This document shows, one piece after another, positions 9,237 to 18,456 of a DNA stretch of 18,456 nucleotides; the stretch's first letter is position 1; every line of letters starts with the position of its first letter. The notes under the pieces are model-generated. The model was not told the origin of the DNA. It was given only the letters and a program-made list of their open reading frames with translations, and ran no database searches. A program made the translations under genes and the position numbers. This DNA is from a virus: the UHGV virus genome UHGV-0102749. One strand, 5' to 3'.

Positions 9237-10436
9237 ATGGCTTTTACAAAAATCAGAATCGATAATCTGTTTTGCTTTGAAAATAGCATCCTTGACTTAA
9301 GCTTCTCCAGACCCCCGATCAACAGCTCACTGGAAGGTGAGTACATTGATGGATTTGAAAAGTTCTACTTCAAAAAGGTTTGCATCGTTTCTGGTGCTAA
9401 TGCATCTGGTAAAACATCTCTTGGTCGCGTGATGCTTTCTGTGTTGCGTTTTCTCAGTAGTGGTGTTTTCAATCCAGAACCGTTAAAAATTACTGACAAA
9501 AGAAAACCTGCATATATAGAGGTTGACTTTTTCCAGAGTCATTTAAAATGTTTGTTTAGGGCAGGTGTCTGGCTTAGGGCTATGGATGAGTCTGTTGTTG
9601 TAGAAAAAATTGCAATGGCATCTGTTGATTTAAGAAGCTCGGAATCATGCGCAAAGACGACCAAAAGACTGGATGCTGTGTGGGATGCGCAAAAGTTTGA
9701 ATTAAATGGTCAAAATAGATTTTTTTCAACCGAAAACGCTAACTCAAAAGAATTTTCCCAATATTTAGAGGATTTGGACTTTGTTCTTGGTTGGCATTTC
9801 ATTCTATCTGAAAACCAAGAGAACACGGATAAAATATCACGAATTAAGAAGAATGTGCTTAATAGCATATTAAAAACCTTTGACAATACTGTTAAATCTG
9901 TCTCAGGACTCACTCTTAAAGATGATGAGGGAAAGGAGGATTTGCAGGGTTATTCAGTAGTCTTCAATAATGGAGATAGAGTTATTATTGATATGGAAGG
10001 TGATATAACAAATAAAGATAGACTGTCTCGTGGTACTTATGAGGCAGTAAAAATATCCCATCTCCTGTCAGGAGTGCTTGAAGATAAAATAGAAGAGCGA
10101 GAGTTCAATTTCCCTTGCAGTGGGGTATACTTTTTGGATGAGAAAATGGCCTTCACTCATACTGAATTAGAAAAAATGATGGTCACGCTGATTATATCTA
10201 AGCTTTGCAGATATGGTCAATTTATATACACCACACATAATTATGATATCTTGAGCTTAGATCTGCCTACGCATTCATATACTTTTACTAAAAAAGTAGA
10301 TGGTGTAACCACTTTTGTTGAAGCTACCACACATCATAAAAAGAATGATCGCAATCTTTTAAATAAAGTAAAAAATGACTGTTTTGCAACAATACCTGAC
10401 GTTTCATTAATCGAAGAGATGCTATTTGAGGATTGA
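9237..10436 (+). CDS. ABC/AAA_21-type ATPase (OLD/AbiL/PARIS-like ATPase component)
   Basis: 399 aa; SD AAAGGTGG. Walker A GANASGKTS, Walker B-like VYFLDE, H-loop-like TTHN near the C-terminus. Strongly AT-rich relative to the flanking phage genes. Confidence 0.8.
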   Translation: MAFTKIRIDNLFCFENSILDLSFSRPPINSSLEGEYIDGFEKFYFKKVCIVSGANASGKTSLGRVMLSVLRFLSSGVFNPEPLKITDKRKPAYIEVDFFQSHLKCLFRAGVWLRAMDESVVVEKIAMASVDLRSSESCAKTTKRLDAVWDAQKFELNGQNRFFSTENANSKEFSQYLEDLDFVLGWHFILSENQENTDKISRIKKNVLNSILKTFDNTVKSVSGLTLKDDEGKEDLQGYSVVFNNGDRVIIDMEGDITNKDRLSRGTYEAVKISHLLSGVLEDKIEEREFNFPCSGVYFLDEKMAFTHTELEKMMVTLIISKLCRYGQFIYTTHNYDILSLDLPTHSYTFTKKVDGVTTFVEATTHHKKNDRNLLNKVKNDCFATIPDVSLIEEMLFED

Positions 10437-10438
10437 TT

Positions 10439-10957
10439 ATGGCAGTTAAGAAATTTGCTATTATTCTTGTTGAGGGAGATACGGAAAAAGCATTGTTTCA
10501 GGATTTCAAAACATTGCTAGGCTATCCTATTAAGAAAATAGTAATTGCTAATTTATGGAATGTTAATATAAATAAATACATGCCAGCATTAACCGAAAAT
10601 AGCGAAATCATAGTGGTTTTTGATACGGATAGGATTGAGAATCTTGATAGATTTAAGAATAATCTCAATCTATTAAAGGCGAAAAAACACACAATCCACC
10701 TATTTCAACAAACAAGCAATTTTGAGGATGAGCTTGCCAATGCTTGTGGTGTAAGTAATAGAAAGTTGTATTCTTGTTTTTGCCCAAAGATCATCTCTGC
10801 AGATAACTTCAAGAATGAATTCATTGCGCTGCGCAACAGGATGATGAAATTAGATGGACTTGGACTAAATAAAACGTTGCTTTGGAGTAGAGGGATTATC
10901 CCCCAATTGAGAGATTATAATTTTCATGTTTCCTCTCATGATGATTATTTTTTATAA
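10439..10957 (+). CDS. Small RloB/DUF4435-like (Toprim-like) protein, partner of the ATPase
   Basis: ATG at 10439, 2 nt after the ATPase stop (the ORF-track start at 10433 is TTG); SD GAGGA. N-terminal AIILVEGDTEKALF resembles the conserved EGxxE block of RloB/OLD-type Toprim-like proteins, followed by an acidic VVFDTDR motif. AT-rich. Confidence 0.65.
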   Translation: MAVKKFAIILVEGDTEKALFQDFKTLLGYPIKKIVIANLWNVNINKYMPALTENSEIIVVFDTDRIENLDRFKNNLNLLKAKKHTIHLFQQTSNFEDELANACGVSNRKLYSCFCPKIISADNFKNEFIALRNRMMKLDGLGLNKTLLWSRGIIPQLRDYNFHVSSHDDYFL

Positions 10958-11403: not shown

Positions 11404-12363
11404 TTACTCCTTGTCCATTGCGTACAGCCCATTAACCAGAGCAAACTGTGGCACCCCGTCCGCGATGAAAGTCGCATTAACTCCGCAGGCTTCGCGGATA
11501 GCGGGTGCCACAATCTCCGCCCCTCCACCGACAACCATCACCCGCCCGTAACCCGAAAAACCCGCCAGCGCGCGGATCACGCGTTGTTTCAGTGTTTCTT
11601 CCTTTTCACGAATAACCGCCATCAGGCTGGCGTAATGCGCGTCATTGTGGATGTGCTGGCGCAGCCAGGCTTCATCATGGCGATGTTCGATAATGGTATT
11701 GGCGATGTGGTGACTGGTGCGCATACCGTTAGTGGCCATCACCGACAGTACGGCATCGGCCATCAGAGAAACGCCTACGTGTGGATCGCAAAACACCTGG
11801 CTGATACCTGCCAGTTGCCCCTGAACCTTTGCCACATCCAGCGTGGTTCCGCCCAAATCCACAATCAGCAGGGATTCAAACGGACTCATGTCAGCCAGTG
11901 CCTTAAAGCCTGCCGGAATGGATTCAGGCATAACCCGCACGTTACGGATAGTGAATGCCTCACCGTTCTGGTACTCCACCGGGCGCATGACGTTCGCTTT
12001 TTTGCGGTTGATGTTGGTCATATCCGGCTGTGCGTTTGTGTCGAAATACTCGCTCAGTGGCAGGGTGACAACCACATCCACCTCCTGTGGCGTGATGCCT
12101 GATTTGAGCAGCGCGTGATGAATGGCAATGACATTCACATCGCTGTACTGGTATTGCGTGTCGGTCGTCTGGACAAAGCGATCGCTGACCGGATCAAAAC
12201 CATAGCGCACGCCATCAAGCATGTAGTTCGCGGGCTGCGTGCCACCGAACGGCGCAGACCATTCCGACTTGAAGCTGTTCGGGCTGATGGCGTTGCGGCG
12301 TTCGCCGTTCTCAGTCCATGCCAGCTTGATGTTGGTGGAGCCGTCGTCGATACAAATTTTCAT
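11404..12363 (-). CDS. parM: ParM/StbA-family actin-like segregation ATPase
   Basis: 319 aa. MKICIDDGSTNIKLAW…SPNSFK…YQYSDVNVIAIHHALL…VMPESIPAG…LIVDLGGTTLD…VMVVGGGAE tracks R1 ParM block by block (phosphate-1 DDGSTN, connect/phosphate-2 DLGGTT, adenosine GGGAE); SD AAGGAA. Confidence 0.85.
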   Translation of the reverse strand: MKICIDDGSTNIKLAWTENGERRNAISPNSFKSEWSAPFGGTQPANYMLDGVRYGFDPVSDRFVQTTDTQYQYSDVNVIAIHHALLKSGITPQEVDVVVTLPLSEYFDTNAQPDMTNINRKKANVMRPVEYQNGEAFTIRNVRVMPESIPAGFKALADMSPFESLLIVDLGGTTLDVAKVQGQLAGISQVFCDPHVGVSLMADAVLSVMATNGMRTSHHIANTIIEHRHDEAWLRQHIHNDAHYASLMAVIREKEETLKQRVIRALAGFSGYGRVMVVGGGAEIVAPAIREACGVNATFIADGVPQFALVNGLYAMDKE

Positions 12364-12503: not shown

Positions 12504-15262
12504 TTGTTTCCACTGGTCAGGCCACCCCGCAGCAGGTCTGCTTTGCGGCGGGCGCGTTCAGTGGTTTCACTGATTCTCTGTGCGTGCTCTGCGTCGCGGA
12601 TGGCGCGCAGCATGTCAGAAAGCACGGTAACGGGTGTTTTCATGGTGTTCTGGTCCTGCTGAAGTGTGGATGCCAGGCGTGCGGCGGCTTCAGGGTCTGA
12701 TGCCCCCAGCTGTGCCAGATAGCTGGCGACCGGGTTATGGCGGATCTCCGTGCTGCTTACGCCGTGATTACGGCTCAGGCGCTGCCAGAGCTGCGTGATT
12801 CGGCTGTCCGGGCGGGTATCCGGTTTGCGTACAATTTCAAATCCCTGCGGTGAAATGATGCTGCCGTCAACGTACAGACTGCCGCCCCGTAACAGGTGCT
12901 GCATCTGCTGTTCACCAATATGCAGGCCGAGAGATTCAGCAGACTCCCGCCATTCTTTAGCGAGTAATTCGTGGTTATCAGGCAAAGGCCGCTGCTGTTT
13001 GCGGCTCTGTGTCCAGCTCTGCATTTCATCACTGCTGTTTTTTGCCTGTTTGTCACGCAGCGAACGCATCAGCGCCCGGCGTTCGTGCCGTTTCAGTGAG
13101 CGCATCCATTCATCCACATCAACGCCGTCAGGAAGCTGCGGCCACGGTGCTGGCCGTTCTTCCGGCTGTTCTGTCCCGTTGTTGTCCGTTTCCTGTACAC
13201 GGGGACAGTTATTGCCACGAGTCCAAGGGGCGGCAGGGCCGCCCTGAAGGTCAAAACCATTTTCGCGGGCGCTGTCTTCCGCTTCCGGTTTACGTCTTAT
13301 CAGCTTCCAGTTATCCGGATGTGTGCACACACGGGAAGACTCCCCGATGAGTGGTGACCAGATCCCGTAAATCTGTACGCTCTGTTCGCCGTAATCGTTC
13401 GGCTCATCTGCGAGGTCGTAGGCGGTGCGAATCAGGTAGTCTTTGCGTGGAACAAGTACGCCGCCCTGTTTTTCAATGTAGGAGGCAAAACACCCGGCAT
13501 CAGCGGCAGCGAGCACTGCATCCATTGCGTCATCCTTCAGCCGTTGCGGGCCTTCCGGGTTGCGTGCCATCTGGTTGGCAAGGCGGCGCAGTTCACGCCA
13601 CACCTGACGGGAGGGGATGCCAAAGAACTGGAACTGGCGGACCCGGTGAAGGCGCGCCCAGCCGATGGCGCGCTCCACGCTCTCGGCCATTGATTTTCCG
13701 GTTTCGTGGTCAACGCGTGGCTTGCCCGTTTTCGGGTCGATACCATCCACGGCGCGGCTGTCCAGGTTCTTTCCGATGTAGGTGGCGATGTAGCTGGTTG
13801 GCGTGCCTTTTGAGCCGTCGACATACTCCACCTTAAAGCGCGGAGTAATATCATTGCCCAGCTCGTGGCGGTCTTCCTGAATGGCAATATCGCGGGTATG
13901 GGACACAATGGTGTCGATTTCTTCCGGATGTGCAAAGACCATCATATGCCAGTGCACGGTGCCGTCATGATGAGGCTCCACCGTGCGGATGCCATACCAG
14001 CGCAGGCCGTCGCGGTTCAGTTTTTTGCGGACCGCCGCAAAAAACGTGTTAACCAGGTAATCGCTGGAGTCGCGCATTGTGGCCCCGTTCCATTTGGGAT
14101 TTGGATGACCGTTCTCCGTTGTGGCGTGGTATTTTGACGGGCAGGTGACAGTCAGAAACACCGCTTTGTCGCCACGGGCTTCGGCCAGAAGTTCCAGCCC
14201 CTTCATGGTGGCCATCATTTCTGCCTTACGGTGAACCGGGTTACTTACTCCCGCGTAATACACCGTCTCGAGATCAATCGTGAACCCGTCTTCATTTTCC
14301 AGCATGAAACTTTTCAGGAAATCGCGTGTTTTCTCGCGCTGTGCGCGAAACTCGCTTAACGCGTCCTGGCTCAGATAGGGTGATGTTTTTCTGGAAACCA
14401 GACAGGCGGCGCGGAGTTGTTCTTCCCGCCACTCGCAACGTAACAGCCACAGTTTGCGTTTCCACCATTCCGCACAGGTCAGGCGAAGGATTGCGCCCGG
14501 CAGCAGCTCCGTGTCCGGTTCGTTCCTCCGGTCTTTGTCTGTTGTCAGAGCGTCATAATGTGGAGGCATGGCGTGCAGGTGTAACGCCATGCGGGCCAGC
14601 ATCTGATACGCCTTCAGCGTTACATCCATGGTCAGCTCGCCATCGGTCGCGCCAAAGCCATCGCAGAGTTTTTCAAAAGTGCCACTGAACATCGCCGCCG
14701 TCATGGTGGCCAGCGTCTGTATCTGGTGTTTGTTGAGCTGCGGCAGGTAAAGCAAATCGTCCAGGCGTTCGCGTCCGGCAAGGGAGCGATAACCCGGTGT
14801 CAGCCAGCGGTGATCGGTGCGCTCCAGACGTTCGAATATTTTGCGCAGGGTCCCACGCGCATAGCGTTCTGCCTGCCTGGCGTTTTTTCCTTTCTGACGA
14901 TCGGCTTCCTGTTTTTTGCGCAGGAAGGAGAGGTGGCGAATAAGCGGATCGCGCAGATAGGACGGCAGCAGGCGCAGCGAGGCCATGGCTTCATCCACCG
15001 CGCCGCGTGCCTGTTTTCTGGCGTCTCCTGCCAGTGTGATGGTTTTGTCCTGTTTTTCCTGTGCGTCCAGGCTTTTATTAATCAGGTTGCCCAGCGGCGT
15101 GGCGGAGAACGCCGCATCAGCCATTTCCTGGCGGCGCTCGTTCTCTGCCCGGTAGGCATCCAGCCAGGAGGAAAGCGCGGATTCAGGAGCGGGGATCCCC
15201 GTTCCTTCACGCCCCACTGCGTGGCGCGGTTGTTGCCAGTCCCTGATGTACTCTGCCGTCAT
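12440..15262 (-). CDS. A: Rolling-circle replication initiator, P2 gpA-like (HUH endonuclease)
   Basis: 940 aa. HUH motif VHWHMMVF and paired catalytic tyrosines in SYIATYIGKNLD (YxxxY), as in P2 A. Last gene of the leftward early operon. Confidence 0.8.
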   Translation of the reverse strand: MTAEYIRDWQQPRHAVGREGTGIPAPESALSSWLDAYRAENERRQEMADAAFSATPLGNLINKSLDAQEKQDKTITLAGDARKQARGAVDEAMASLRLLPSYLRDPLIRHLSFLRKKQEADRQKGKNARQAERYARGTLRKIFERLERTDHRWLTPGYRSLAGRERLDDLLYLPQLNKHQIQTLATMTAAMFSGTFEKLCDGFGATDGELTMDVTLKAYQMLARMALHLHAMPPHYDALTTDKDRRNEPDTELLPGAILRLTCAEWWKRKLWLLRCEWREEQLRAACLVSRKTSPYLSQDALSEFRAQREKTRDFLKSFMLENEDGFTIDLETVYYAGVSNPVHRKAEMMATMKGLELLAEARGDKAVFLTVTCPSKYHATTENGHPNPKWNGATMRDSSDYLVNTFFAAVRKKLNRDGLRWYGIRTVEPHHDGTVHWHMMVFAHPEEIDTIVSHTRDIAIQEDRHELGNDITPRFKVEYVDGSKGTPTSYIATYIGKNLDSRAVDGIDPKTGKPRVDHETGKSMAESVERAIGWARLHRVRQFQFFGIPSRQVWRELRRLANQMARNPEGPQRLKDDAMDAVLAAADAGCFASYIEKQGGVLVPRKDYLIRTAYDLADEPNDYGEQSVQIYGIWSPLIGESSRVCTHPDNWKLIRRKPEAEDSARENGFDLQGGPAAPWTRGNNCPRVQETDNNGTEQPEERPAPWPQLPDGVDVDEWMRSLKRHERRALMRSLRDKQAKNSSDEMQSWTQSRKQQRPLPDNHELLAKEWRESAESLGLHIGEQQMQHLLRGGSLYVDGSIISPQGFEIVRKPDTRPDSRITQLWQRLSRNHGVSSTEIRHNPVASYLAQLGASDPEAAARLASTLQQDQNTMKTPVTVLSDMLRAIRDAEHAQRISETTERARRKADLLRGGLTSGNKKQTETGLTNPVNEQKTRSDI

Positions 15263-15268
15263 AGTGAT

Positions 15269-15634
15269 TTACTTCGTCATGCCATTCAGGGGGTCGCGGC
15301 AGACTGTAGCCAGCCGCTGAATTTCCAGCACGGTGTCTTCTGTGTCGGCATGGCGATGTGTGATGCGGATGCTGTCGGCAATCACATCGACGATTGCAGA
15401 GGATGGGCGCTGGTAAATGCCAATAACGGACGGGGTGCCACCTTCAATGCGGTAAAGCCTGTAATTTCCCTCGTGGCTGTCAATCATGTAGCGACCATCA
15501 ATAACAATCTTTCCGTCAGCGAGCTGCGGTACAGGCAGGGATTTCAGGTACATGTCATAACGTTCACGCACGCGAACGGCAAGATCACGCTCTGTGTTGA
15601 GCAGGTATTCAAGAAAGTCGTTGGCGAGAATCAT
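15269..15634 (-). CDS. Hypothetical early protein
   Basis: 121 aa; SD AGAGGA; immediately upstream of A in the early operon. Confidence 0.5.
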   Translation of the reverse strand: MILANDFLEYLLNTERDLAVRVRERYDMYLKSLPVPQLADGKIVIDGRYMIDSHEGNYRLYRIEGGTPSVIGIYQRPSSAIVDVIADSIRITHRHADTEDTVLEIQRLATVCRDPLNGMTK

Positions 15635-15647
15635 TGCGGCAATCCTC

Positions 15648-15779
15648 TTGTTACAGATGTGCGAAGGCCTCCCGCCACAAGGTGCAGGAAAGGCCCGGAA
15701 CAGGAATTAATGGAGTTTGTTTTGCTGCCGGATGAGCTGCTGAAGCCCGACGTGGTTTCCGGCAGTTGGAGGTGCTCAT
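15648..15779 (-). CDS. Possible small ORF (43 aa) filling a 140-bp gap in the early operon
   Basis: ATG at 15779 overlaps the stop of the upstream gene (ATGA). Translation MSTSNCRKPRRASAAHPAAKQTPLIPVPGLSCTLWREAFAHL. Support is weak and it may be non-coding. Confidence 0.2.
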
Positions 15780-16021
15780 GCTCTGATTTCCCTCAGTAGC
15801 TGGTTGAACATCTGGGTTAGTGGGTTGCTACACCCAAACGGCATCGGGTTTACCAGATAAGAAAAGCGACCGCCTGTTTTGCGCTCTTTTCTTATGACTG
15901 AACCGCTGCGCCAGAGACGGCGTAGCTCCACATTAATGGTTGTGGTTGGTGTATTCAGTGCTGCGGCGATTTCTCCACCGCTACAACCCGGATTGGCAGC
16001 GATGTAGTCCAGAATGGTCAT
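15776..16021 (-). CDS. Small probable winged-helix DNA-binding protein (early operon)
   Basis: 81 aa; MTILDYIAANPGCSGGEIAAAL…ELRRLWRSGSVIRKERKTGGRFSYLV has the pattern of a winged-helix/MarR-like fold; ATGA-coupled to the upstream gene. Confidence 0.5.
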   Translation of the reverse strand: MTILDYIAANPGCSGGEIAAALNTPTTTINVELRRLWRSGSVIRKERKTGGRFSYLVNPMPFGCSNPLTQMFNQLLREIRA

Positions 16022-16221
16022 CTGCGTGACTCCTGTACCTGTCTGATAAGATTCACCTGCACCACGTTGGTGGCGCAGAAGTAAGTGCCGTCAGTGAGAT
16101 AGATGTGATGTGCATCCTTTTCTGAACGGTGTTTGTCGATTGTGGTAATCAGGCGTTCGTCAACTTCGTATTCACGTCCTCTGGAGGTGAAACGAACGAC
16201 AGGAAAATGCTTAATTGCCAT
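16018..16221 (-). CDS. Hypothetical early protein
   Basis: 67 aa; strong SD AAGGAGG 5 nt upstream of ATG 16221. Confidence 0.5.
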   Translation of the reverse strand: MAIKHFPVVRFTSRGREYEVDERLITTIDKHRSEKDAHHIYLTDGTYFCATNVVQVNLIRQVQESRR

Positions 16222-16308
16222 TACGCCTCCTTGGCGTGTGCGAATACCTCCGCGAATGCGGATTGTTTTTACATTTTCTTATTTAACCTAGGGTTTTTAT
16301 TTGCGCTG

Positions 16309-16422
16309 TTATTCGCCAGTGAAAATGCGTTCAATCTTTTTTACTGAATGAATAATTTGCATAATCCCAATGGCGCAGACCACCGAAATAATCAGGACAA
16401 GCCATGAGATAAATATACTCAT
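16309..16422 (-). CDS. Small hydrophobic membrane peptide (37 aa)
   Basis: ATG 16422 overlaps the stop of the upstream gene (ATGA). Translation MSIFISWLVLIISVVCAIGIMQIIHSVKKIERIFTGE is one TM helix plus a basic tail. Below the ORF-track length cutoff. Confidence 0.45.
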   Translation of the reverse strand: MSIFISWLVLIISVVCAIGIMQIIHSVKKIERIFTGE

Positions 16423-16661
16423 GCAATATTCCCCAGCTTATACGGTTCAATATGCTCCCCGCATTCTGCGGCACAGATCAGCTCGGAAAGTTCGTTAAGT
16501 GCATCCAGATCATCAGCGTAAAAAGCCACGTCATACAGACTCCGGATTGCCCTGGTCAATGAGTCACGGGCTGCACGTTCAGCATGAGCACCTGATGCAC
16601 TTAAGCGAAAATAAAAACGCTCAAGTGCTTTGTTAATGAGAGTTTTATATTCTTTGCCCAT
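16419..16661 (-). CDS. Hypothetical early protein
   Basis: 80 aa; SD AAGGG; same operon and strand. Confidence 0.5.
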   Translation of the reverse strand: MGKEYKTLINKALERFYFRLSASGAHAERAARDSLTRAIRSLYDVAFYADDLDALNELSELICAAECGEHIEPYKLGNIA

Positions 16662-16672
16662 CGCAACGCCCT

Positions 16673-16951
16673 TTAATCTGCTTTCTGAATTTCAGCTTCT
16701 GAATCCATACAAATAATTTCGATATAGGGTTCATCGCCATTAATCTTACGTGCTTTTTCAGCTTCGCTAATGATTCCGTGTACAGTCTGGTACGGAAGTT
16801 CTACGGTCAGGCGCGTGCCGTTCAGATAAACGTAAGTAGCTGCATTTTTTTCTGATGGGACAACTCCATCAATAGCTGATGCGCGCAATAACAGTTCACC
16901 GCGAAAATCAATAAAACGGATAAATACACCTTGTGCATGCTCTTTGGTCAT
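16673..16951 (-). CDS. Hypothetical early protein
   Basis: Start taken at internal ATG 16951 (MTKEHAQGVF…) so it does not overlap the upstream gene; the ORF-track start at 17050 overlaps 16962..17300. Confidence 0.45.
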   Translation of the reverse strand: MTKEHAQGVFIRFIDFRGELLLRASAIDGVVPSEKNAATYVYLNGTRLTVELPYQTVHGIISEAEKARKINGDEPYIEIICMDSEAEIQKAD

Positions 16952-16961
16952 AACGCACCTG

Positions 16962-17300
16962 TTATAAATCAGTCTGTTTAATAAAACTTTGCCCGCGAAG
17001 CAGACGATCAACCGTGCGAAGTGCTTCGTATAATGTGAAATCCTGTCCAAACTGAGTGTCGCCGTTGCTCAGAGCAAAAATGCGGTTTCCGGTAAATGGG
17101 TTGCGTTGGCATCTGTGAACCACGATTCCAGCTTTTTCAATCAGCCAGGTGTGTTCGCCAATTTGTTTTACTGTATGGCCATCTGGCGTTGCGTGCGTCT
17201 CGCTCAGGCTGTAGCGGATGTTGCTGCGTGATGCGCTGGTAGCGAAACGGTTAGCTTGGCGTTCCGTTTCGGTGCGAAAATTACGGCGTTGCTTCAGCAT
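16962..17300 (-). CDS. Hypothetical early protein
   Basis: 112 aa; SD GAGGTG 7 nt upstream of ATG 17300. Confidence 0.5.
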   Translation of the reverse strand: MLKQRRNFRTETERQANRFATSASRSNIRYSLSETHATPDGHTVKQIGEHTWLIEKAGIVVHRCQRNPFTGNRIFALSNGDTQFGQDFTLYEALRTVDRLLRGQSFIKQTDL

Positions 17301-17314
17301 AAAATGACACCTCG

Positions 17315-17593
17315 TTATTTTGTCATCTGCACGTATTTCTCTGCGTTTCTGATGGTTTTCAGGAAAATTGCGAAGAGATTTACTGTACGTTTTGAGTTTT
17401 TTTCTTCTTGGTTGATGGGAAGGGCTGCTCTGTCAGCCTGCCTTTTCACTGCATTAACAGTTTGATTGGTACGCTTCGCGTAATCTTTCAGGCTTTCTTC
17501 GAGTACCGGTAATCCATGCTCATCGCGGTATGGGTAGAACGCCGCCAAACGCTCAAAATCCGCTTGCTCGTATGTGTTCAAGAGCTTTGTCAT
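17315..17593 (-). CDS. cox: Cox/Apl-like excisionase-repressor (first gene of early operon)
   Basis: 92 aa, divergent from the C repressor. DYAKRTNQTVNAVKRQADRAALPI parallels the P2 Cox helix-turn-helix (FAKLIGKSTGAVRRMIDKGKLPV, recalled). Position matches P2 cox. Confidence 0.55.
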   Translation of the reverse strand: MTKLLNTYEQADFERLAAFYPYRDEHGLPVLEESLKDYAKRTNQTVNAVKRQADRAALPINQEEKNSKRTVNLFAIFLKTIRNAEKYVQMTK

Positions 17594-17684
17594 GATGTGA
17601 TAACCTGTTCAGTCTGTGGTTATTTGTTGCTAAAAGTCGTCTCTAGGCGACTTTTAGGGTTAATTTAGTCGTCTGGAGACCACC
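17594..17684. promoter_or_regulatory. Lysis-lysogeny switch region (face-to-face Pe/Pc promoters and operators)
   Basis: 91-bp region between the divergent cox-like and C genes. Perfect dyad AAAAGTCG-N8-CGACTTTT (17632..17655) and direct repeat AGTCGTCT at 17635 and 17667 (32 bp apart). Confidence 0.5.
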
Positions 17685-17996
17685 ATGTCAAGTGGGTACG
17701 AAAAAAAACTGAAAGAGATACGGAAAAGTGAAGGGTTAACTCAAGCTGAGTTTGCAGATGTTACTGGGATAAATCTCGGAACTATAAAGAATTATGAGAG
17801 CGGTAAAAGAGAGGTTGGTTTAAGCGTTGTTGATCGCGTAATTAATTCTAAGGATTTCGAAAAATACACTATATGGCTTATGACGGGAAAAACAAATGAG
17901 GCTGCTGGGCAGATCAGTCCCTCTCTCTCCCCTGATGGGCCAGAAAACACATCGTCTTCTCAAAAATCCCGCAAGACTGGTACACAGCCCGGCTAA
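17685..17996 (+). CDS. C: Immunity repressor, P2 C-like (HTH)
   Basis: 103 aa. LTQAEFADVTGINLGTIKNYESGKR is a typical HTH, and KYTIWLMTGKTNEAAGQISPSL parallels P2 C (KYTLWFMTNQIAPESGQIAPAL, recalled). Located immediately upstream of int as in P2. Confidence 0.75.
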   Translation: MSSGYEKKLKEIRKSEGLTQAEFADVTGINLGTIKNYESGKREVGLSVVDRVINSKDFEKYTIWLMTGKTNEAAGQISPSLSPDGPENTSSSQKSRKTGTQPG

Positions 17997-18045
17997 TCAT
18001 GGAACGCTGGGGGCATGGTGGTCTTGTAACGCTGGGGTTTCACGA

Positions 18046-18456
18046 ATGAGCATAAAATCAATTCCGGGAGGGTATCTTCTTGACATGCGCCCTGAGGGGC
18101 GTAAAGGCAAACGCATTCGCAAAAAATTTAAAACGAAATCGGATGCAGTTTTATATGAGCGGTGGGTGCTGGCGCAACAGCATAACAATGAGTGGAAAGG
18201 AAACTCCATTGATCGCCGTCCGCTGTCGGTGCTTATTGACTTGTGGTGGAAATACCACGGCCAGCTAATGAAGTCAGGGCATAACACGCGCCTTAAATTG
18301 CTGCGCTTGAGTGAGGCAATGGATGACCCGTGTGTGCATAAACTTAATACAACGATGCTCACCGAGCTACGTGTGTCCAGGATAGAGCAGGGGATACAGC
18401 CCATAAGCGCTAACTTAAGGGTTGAACCATCTGAAGAATGCGACGCCTCGGTGCCT
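18046..18456 (+). CDS. int: Tyrosine integrase, P2 Int-like (N-terminal part; continues past window end)
   Basis: Translation from ATG 18046 (MSIKSIPGGYLLDMRPEGRKGKRIRKKFKTKSDAVLYERWVLAQQHNNEW…) matches the P2 Int N-terminus (MAIKKLDDGRYEVDIRPTGRNGKRIRRKFDKKSEAVAFEK…); open to the window end. Absent from the ORF track because it is truncated. Confidence 0.8.
   Translation, partial: MSIKSIPGGYLLDMRPEGRKGKRIRKKFKTKSDAVLYERWVLAQQHNNEWKGNSIDRRPLSVLIDLWWKYHGQLMKSGHNTRLKLLRLSEAMDDPCVHKLNTTMLTELRVSRIEQGIQPISANLRVEPSEECDASVP

Follow-up and report, generated by a model that had tools for sequence, protein, structure and literature searches.

The DNA analysed here (the window) is a stretch of 18,456 nucleotides, UHGV virus genome UHGV-0102749, and its sequence identifies it as a P88-like E. 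coli prophage of the P2 family (Xuanwuvirus, Peduoviridae). The family is that of the phage records whose taxonomy was checked (P88, 503458 and vB_EcoM-569R5), and the genus that of P88 and 503458. The subject of this analysis is a small gene on the minus strand, referred to below as the peptide gene. The 2-kb region around it has matches in the chromosomal prophages of 1382 of the 5426 complete E. coli genomes, the best of them in O55:H7 DEC5B (98.9% identity). It also matches 14 phage records at 90-95% identity, which include P88, P884B11, 520873, vB_EcoM-569R5 and the Citrobacter phage Shae_phiSM. The gene layout of this early region is that of the P2 and 186 early operons, and the peptide gene is the fifth cistron of an operon that runs from a Pe-like promoter to the gpA replication gene. 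This P2-like gene order confirms the location proposed in the initial annotation, within the early operon of a temperate phage. The genes and the promoter of the region are as follows.

17685-17996, divergent to the early operon: C-type repressor gene
17662-17691, minus strand: Pe-like early promoter, TTGACA-18-TAAATT, a 10/12 consensus match whose position matches P2 Pe and 186 pR
17593-17315, minus strand: Cox-like DNA-binding gene
17300-16962, minus strand: DUF4761 gene
16951-16673, minus strand: PHROG 3800 gene
16419-16661, minus strand: DUF4754 gene (PF15946, 2.8e-54), encoding an acidic, helical protein of 80 aa, the upstream partner of the peptide gene
16309-16422, minus strand: peptide ORF, 37 codons and TAA, P88 gp07 family, WP_000021664.1-like (sequence, RefSeq CDS, P88 gp07)
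16221-16018, minus strand: PHROG 3459 gene, separated from the peptide gene by an 87-nt gap
16021-15776, minus strand: MarR-type wHTH gene
15634-15269, minus strand: PHROG 3237 gene
15262-12440, minus strand: gpA-type replication endonuclease gene

The Pe-like promoter sits between the C-repressor-like gene and the Cox-like gene and is the presumed source of the transcript that bears the peptide gene. The best promoter candidate nearby, a 9/12 match about 190 nt upstream of the peptide gene, lies within chance expectation. Because of its position in the operon, the peptide would be made only while repression is lifted, upon induction or infection. ATGA overlaps are frequent in this early operon: another one lies at 16018-16021, and a 42-codon ORF at 15651-15779 (minus strand) begins in an ATGA overlap with the stop of the MarR-type gene. 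In DEC5B, the equivalent of the 15651-15779 stretch is an incomplete pseudogene according to RefSeq.

The peptide ORF reads on the minus strand from an ATG at 16422-16420 through 37 sense codons to a TAA at 16311-16309. Its product, MSIFISWLVLIISVVCAIGIMQIIHSVKKIERIFTGE, is identical to the one originally reported for 16309-16422. Several elements could be placed within the ORF and at its junction with the DUF4754 gene.

16429-16434, minus strand: SD-like GGGGAA, 8 nt before the peptide ATG, within the last DUF4754 codons (sequence)
16419-16422, minus strand: ATGA start/stop overlap of the peptide and DUF4754 genes, a translational coupling signal (sequence; 13 junction variants)
16360-16416, minus strand: predicted transmembrane helix, codons 3-21, IFISWLVLIISVVCAIGIM (hydropathy, AF2, column conservation)
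16312-16359, minus strand: predicted cytoplasmic amphipathic tail, codons 22-37, QIIHSVKKIERIFTGE (hydrophobic moment, conservation)
16337-16342, minus strand: A6 run in codons 27-29 (GTA AAA AAG), a 1-nt deletion site of 45-aa variants (sequence)

The 19-residue window of highest hydropathy covers residues 3-21, with a Kyte-Doolittle mean of 2.81 and a summed Hessa-scale value of -3.35. A single-sequence AlphaFold2 model of the peptide consists of one helix spanning residues 2-35 (pLDDT 93). The N-terminus is without charge, and the tail shows a hydrophobic moment of 0.68-0.77 (residues 22-35 and 23-34) and, in the window copy, a net charge of +1 (K28, K29 and R32 vs E31 and E37). This copy carries the minority residues Q22 and I33, and the 41-aa homologues found in relatives have more basic C-terminal ends (KRHK, ERRK or KRRK). 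The product had been described as a hydrophobic helix with a basic tail. A single transmembrane helix followed by a short polar tail is indeed present, but the tail is only weakly basic here and is better described as an amphipathic mixed-charge helix. A reading of the peptide as a lipoprotein or secreted protein was dropped: it has no positively charged N-region, the motif 'SVVC' does not constitute a lipobox, and homologues have M or F in place of C16. An open frame of 36 codons occurs by itself in 8-15% of shuffles, and together with an equally hydrophobic 19-residue window in 0.1% of them; it is conservation in relatives that places the ORF well past chance expectation.

The peptide had also been called unannotated, which is true only of the ORF track used at that time. 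RefSeq holds a 37-aa CDS at exactly the matching position in DEC5B (hypothetical protein WP_000021664.1), and O157:H7 493/89 carries an equivalent after its DUF4754 gene (WP_000021655.1). In phage P88, the homologue gp07 is named 'membrane protein' (YP_009113050.1) and is 92% identical to the window peptide (tblastn 9e-14); the homologue in vB_EcoM-569R5 is labelled 'putative membrane protein'. The exact peptide sequence belongs to a 19-member cluster, recorded as 'hypothetical protein' or 'Membrane protein' and present on 1000 contigs or more. In 1376 of the 5426 complete E. coli genomes (~25%) there is a match to a 151-nt probe that covers the ORF, and carriers of the gene include O157:H7 and O55:H7. 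When 30 E. coli rows were sampled across the match ranking, a CDS was annotated beneath the probe in 29, the single exception being a deletion that joins DUF4754 to gpA. The gene is thus already present in databases and is not new. A draft assembly named 'Vagococcus sp. WN89Y' (NZ_JBQPOM010000071.1, locus L004) also holds this E. coli prophage region, with a DUF4754 protein 98% identical and 96.6% identity over a 500-nt DNA segment; this occurrence is most likely due to assembly contamination.

Loci for comparison were found by way of the adjacent DUF4754 gene, through exact sequence look-up for divergent homologues, and from individual records. A scan of viral sequences gave 80 loci and a repeat scan with the DUF4754 alignment gave the same 80; further diversity came from the contigs of divergent homologues and from a scan seeded by one of them. 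The peptide ORF is open through at least its first 31 codons, with the ATGA overlap, in 105/105 non-redundant loci. A frameshifted or absent ORF in close relatives had been named as evidence that would speak against the gene; in all 105 loci the ORF is present and its first 31 codons and ATGA junction are intact. With this and with purifying selection, the gene does not fall on this ground.

For P88-type copies, the peptide frame has a pN/pS of 0.24, and the two remaining sense frames have 1.48 and 1.03. The overall in-frame value is 0.24-0.35, and values of about 0.25-0.35 indicate moderate constraint only. Pairwise comparisons were made with divergent homologues from five loci (L086, L090, L091, L182 and L184; 61-71% nucleotide identity and 54-68% amino-acid identity), for which pS was 0.58-0.82 and pN 0.18-0.26. 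These comparisons come close to saturation at synonymous sites, and stops occur in the alternative frames. Variable sites are distributed 26/13/33 over codon positions 1/2/3 (p=0.014). The invariant columns are M1, S6, W7, L10, G19, I23, I24, K28 and F34, and those from S6 to F34 are all retained in the 41-aa homologues at 54-65% identity; S2, F4, I11, A17, I18, I30 and E31 are nearly invariant. Within the helix, conservation concerns S6, W7, L10, S/A13, A17 and G19, while in the tail E31 is found in 31 of 32 variants and R22 in most relatives. An exhaustive phmmer search over 1.84 billion representatives returned only 7 clusters, all of 32-45 aa (9e-12 to 1e-3). These clusters come from Escherichia and, for a few, from Salmonella, and one copy was found in a Citrobacter phage of the phage collection. 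Since the family occurs only in prophages of Escherichia, Salmonella and Citrobacter, comparative power is limited. Judged by these alignments, the peptide ORF is a genuine conserved gene.

The C-terminal end of the peptide is more variable. Products of 45 aa were found in 7 of the first 84 loci and in two representative clusters, where one nucleotide is missing from the A6 run, or from a T5 run located at codons 33-34 in relatives, so that a polar tail takes the place of the last 5-9 residues. These variants differ from each other by substitutions, which shows that at least some of them are inherited and are not read errors. The existence of several lineages with frameshifted 45-aa tails implies that the conserved FTGE end is dispensable or that those copies are altered. 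In phage 503458 the peptide copy is disrupted; because the DUF4754 gene there also has three 1-nt deletions, we regard this record as low-quality or decaying sequence and not as counter-evidence to the gene. Codons 27-29 contain an in-frame, dnaX-like slippery heptamer, A AAA AAG (16336-16344, minus strand), at which a -1 shift would yield a 30-aa product ending KKD*. Programmed -1 frameshifting was considered and rejected, as the heptamer does not occur in the 41-aa class and would lead only to the product ending ...KKD*; its presence is probably a coincidence. In loci L179-L186 (e.g. L182:1878-1973), a second small hydrophobic ORF of 31 aa, MKNVKAILTIATVWVIFQVSALIWLALKIWE, lies directly after the 41-aa homologue.

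At the upstream junction, the peptide ATG and the DUF4754 TGA stop (16421-16419) overlap by three bases, giving ATGA. The overlap of ATG 16422 with the upstream stop, to which the initial annotation had drawn attention, is present in the window and in 105/105 loci, and all 13 junction variants among these loci terminate ...CATGA. Divergent relatives display purine-rich SD-like motifs (GAGGAG, GAGGTGG, AGGAG, GGGGAA) at equal distance from the start, despite differing C-terminal residues of DUF4754. The ATGA overlap and the SD-like site would couple translation of the peptide to that of DUF4754.

The DUF4754 gene lies directly upstream of the peptide gene in all loci, with the 4-nt overlap, and the pair remains adjacent in divergent prophages in which PHROG 3800-like and other genes shift to the other side. 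DUF4754 is acidic, with a net charge of -8 over its last 40 residues, and AF2 models it with confidence as a helical bundle (pLDDT 88.8). Foldseek comparison of this model with the PDB returned only generic or designed helical proteins at E>1, and neither profile nor sequence searches of the PDB produced a match to DUF4754, DUF4761 or the PHROG 3800 protein. At locus L092, a P88-type DUF4754, 83% identical to that of the window, occurs together with the divergent 41-aa peptide class, which elsewhere accompanies DUF4754 proteins only ~40% identical. Owing to this mixed combination, the two partners appear exchangeable and not tightly co-evolved. Proteins of 103-128 aa listed as 'DUF4754' were considered as natural DUF4754-peptide fusions and rejected. 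Most of them either run into the wrong frame (...HEYIYLMACSDYFGG...) or have a wrong-frame N-terminal extension, while the only one to return to the frame of the peptide does so through two shifts and comes from a single short Logan contig (P0039). All were treated as assembly frameshifts and not as Rosetta-stone evidence.

Downstream of the peptide gene, the 87-nt gap contains a conserved hairpin.

16249-16262, minus strand: hairpin UCCGC-N4-GCGGA then GG, in the 87-nt gap, 46 nt past the peptide stop (conservation, pairing)

An A-rich GAAAAC precedes it (16247-16270, minus strand), and the GG that follows it completes a GGAGG, after which there is no start codon. The hairpin is kept in 98 loci (25 distinct versions), including loci with 54-65% identical peptides, and is found at the same place in L086, L090, L091 and L005. 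Its loop varies, whereas pairing is maintained in 99.2% of cells, and the closing C-G pair is replaced by a compensatory U-A in five distinct versions. It scores as a weak intrinsic terminator on the plus strand and is without a U-tract on the early mRNA strand. Two variants pair only as G.U, on the sense RNA. This wobble pattern leads us to favour the early mRNA strand, where the hairpin may act in processing, RNA stability or pausing or as a boundary element, and a function as a plus-strand intrinsic terminator is disfavoured, since the G.U variants pair on the minus-strand RNA alone.

The hairpin marks the end of the conserved cox-to-peptide block. Past the hairpin and ahead of the SD of the gene at 16221, a homology breakpoint and insertion hot spot lies at ~16231-16235 (minus strand), and many relatives have insertions of 275-440 bp or different genes at this point. 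The cargo there includes a 136-aa ORF in vB_EcoM-569R5 and a 138-aa ORF in O157:H7; in L092 it comprises a 162-aa ORF, an Rv2179c-like exonuclease and a Dam-type methyltransferase. Sense-strand terminators occupy the equivalent boundary in P2, in 186 and in one related lineage. In the L182 lineage, a terminator-like sense-strand hairpin with a T-run (~2031-2066) replaces the UCCGC hairpin after the 31-aa ORF.

We then compared the peptide with known families and classes. It is similar over its full length to the P88 gp07-type family and is placed as its members are, directly after DUF4754 with the ATGA overlap, between the Cox-like gene and gpA; P88 gp07, WP_000021664.1 and WP_000021655.1 share its family and position without any difference of substance. 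Pfam gave just two weak sub-threshold matches to unrelated families (E 0.13 and 0.42), with no Kil family among them, and NCBIfam one weak sub-threshold match to an unrelated family. PHROG returned no match at E<=1, PADLOC no family and the PDB sequence search no match. Similarity to the Kil/KilR/Fil division inhibitors was thus absent from the Pfam and PHROG results, as was similarity to superinfection-exclusion or defence families (Imm, Sp, Sie) from PADLOC and PHROG. The peptide lies outside the lysis cassette and has no holin or antiholin match in Pfam, PHROG or NCBIfam. It is a small hydrophobic membrane peptide, as type I toxins are, but neither an antisense or cis-acting sRNA nor a promoter and leader of its own were found, and Rfam gave no match at E<=1 over 15000-18456, hence no toxin-antitoxin RNA family. 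With fewer than 50 residues and one TM helix it belongs with the small single-pass membrane regulators, which are a works-like class and not a homology family. Our search found no literature on the peptide family, its accessions or the neighbouring DUFs, and a UPEC Ribo-seq preprint does not mention the peptide. No sequence, family or RNA evidence was found that ties the peptide to the Kil-like, toxin or superinfection-exclusion roles suggested in the initial annotation, which stand as a reasonable analogy. With neither a matching entry in Pfam, PHROG, NCBIfam, PADLOC, PDB or Rfam nor literature to draw on, its function has to be deduced.

Among bacterial proteins, MgrB, AcrZ, MgtS, PmrR and CydX have fewer than 50 residues and a single TM helix and bind a larger inner-membrane protein. 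They are chromosomal, stress-regulated and expressed from their own promoters, whereas the peptide is phage-borne and operon-internal and has no sequence relation to them. Small membrane regulators of bacteria are partly summarised in bioRxiv 10.64898/2026.09.28.754932. In temperate phages, 186 Fil and Dhr, lambda Kil and Rac KilR are small, non-essential, host-directed proteins encoded in the first segment of a repressor-controlled early operon. The 186 fil and dhr genes lie just before the terminator tR1, a position matched by that of the peptide gene before its hairpin; however, neither Fil (75 aa) nor Dhr (66 aa) is a transmembrane protein or related in sequence to the peptide. P2 Orf78 has a comparable position but is likewise unrelated and non-transmembrane. 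The type I toxins Hok, Ldr, TisB, Ibs and Zor have length and extreme hydrophobicity in common with the peptide; unlike them, it is coupled in an operon, without a dedicated promoter or leader and with no antisense RNA family found. Gp11 of Staphylococcus phage PhiNM1 is a 53-aa membrane protein, encoded by an early gene, that binds MurG and DivIC and blocks division (PMC11237401). Like the peptide, it is a very small membrane protein among early phage genes, and we adopted it as a working model, although it has two predicted TM helices where the peptide has one, belongs to a different host and phage family and shows no sequence similarity. Gp56 of Bacillus phage SPO1 is an example similar to Gp11.

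On this model, the peptide would be a 37-residue single-pass inner-membrane protein whose residues 3-21 span the membrane. Its uncharged N-terminus of one or two residues would face the periplasm and its amphipathic K/R/E tail the cytoplasm (N-out/C-in), an orientation that we infer from the positive-inside rule and from the way in which small membrane proteins of E. coli are known to behave. With the repressor-controlled Pe-like promoter driving its transcription, it would be made with DUF4754 early in lytic growth, after induction or infection only. The small/polar face formed by S6, W7, S13, A17 and G19 may pack helix-to-helix on a larger membrane protein, and the conserved tail face K28, E31 and F34 may join in this packing. 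Binding would modulate a host envelope or division function early, so that the peptide, perhaps jointly with DUF4754, would be an accessory factor of host takeover. We assign a probability of roughly 45% to the central proposal, that the peptide has an accessory early role in which it binds a membrane protein and modulates it. A real, conserved, coupled gene for a strongly hydrophobic product is what is shown; timing of expression, topology, target and phenotype are what we infer, and purely so for a target among host proteins: the target may also be a phage protein, or the effect may be at the level of lipids.

A reading that overlaps with this one sees in the peptide the membrane anchor or partner subunit of DUF4754, the two forming a coupled effector made in fixed proportion, with the acidic C-terminal half of DUF4754 docking on the basic amphipathic tail at the inner membrane face. 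It would account for genes that are always adjacent, with their 4-nt overlap, despite the rearrangement around them, for their joint distribution in complete E. coli records (1383 match the 2-kb DUF4754 region and 1377 the peptide segment) and for the complementary charges of the last 40 residues of DUF4754 (-8) and the net-positive tail. However, L092 mixes a P88-type DUF4754 with the divergent 41-aa peptide class, the proteins of 109-116 aa that look like natural fusions arise as artefacts of out-of-frame frameshifts and the DUF4754 model offers no functional clue, and we hold this reading to be unlikely. Another view is that of a membrane-damaging toxin (type I toxin, holin or Kil-like) that oligomerises and depolarises or permeabilises the membrane for early host shutdown. 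The very hydrophobic helix with its charged C-terminus, and a size and composition like those of Hok, TisB, Ldr and Zor-type peptides, would fit such a role. Yet the gene is coupled inside a long operon without its own promoter, long leader or antisense RNA; the region 15000-18456 holds no Rfam toxin-antitoxin RNA and no convincing local promoter; and the gene stands outside the lysis cassette without a match to holin or toxin families. Early depolarisation would be costly to a phage that still needs to replicate, and the conserved S/A/G face suggests specific packing over pore formation. A toxin of this kind thus seems quite improbable.

An early superinfection-exclusion or injection-blocking factor, similar to T4 Imm or Sp and stopping the entry of secondary phage DNA during the lytic cycle, appears more doubtful still. 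Membrane Sie proteins of this sort are known, the peptide would be made early, and a hot spot for accessory genes lies just downstream; but PADLOC and PHROG show no similarity to exclusion families, a position in the repressed early operon would leave lysogens unprotected, and the gene is conserved in the core early block and not as variable cargo. It could finally be supposed that the peptide is itself functionless and that its translation serves the mRNA, for instance by bringing ribosomes up to the hairpin, averting Rho polarity or tuning the expression of downstream genes. The ORF does end close to an operon segment boundary, with the conserved hairpin 46 nt further on; P2, 186 and one related lineage carry terminators at the corresponding point, and frameshift variants of the C-terminus are tolerated. 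A pN/pS of 0.24-0.35 and residues that stay invariant at 54% identity, with synonymous sites near saturation, contradict this supposition, as does the preserved TM character; a pure spacer ORF would not keep such features, and we give it very little credence.

Very small membrane proteins are routinely missed or called 'hypothetical', while several phage examples are precise inhibitors of essential envelope machinery. In a bolder extension of the binding proposal, which we think improbable, DUF4754 and the peptide would form an unrecognised two-part, membrane-targeted host-takeover module that binds, early in the lytic cycle, an essential inner-membrane machine (the divisome, the lipid II pathway or FtsH). 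If true, this would define a new family of phage envelope or division inhibitors present in about a quarter of E. coli genomes, and the early transcript would have a regulated boundary at the hairpin after the module. A specific host target of the peptide would provide a new handle on that target and on the way in which P2-type phages prepare the cell; a peptide that does nothing measurable would be one more accessory early gene. The main gain of the present analysis is that a guess made from the sequence alone has become a well-supported gene call, for a gene not new to databases.

Two further observations concern the cargo of the window. Between the portal gene and gpA, the region 9237-10957 (plus strand) carries two overlapping genes, the first encoding a 399-aa AAA_15 ATPase (PADLOC AbiLi 1e-27, AriA 5e-8) and the second a 174-aa OLD-like TOPRIM protein (AbiLii/GajA-like). 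This pair is a candidate for an anti-phage defence system of two genes, located in the P2 old/tin hot spot. Adjoining the replication gene, 11404-12363 (minus strand) encodes a 319-aa ParM-like actin (StbA_N 3e-82, ParM C-terminal domain 1e-68), which inside a prophage is an unusual cargo for an integrated P2-like phage.
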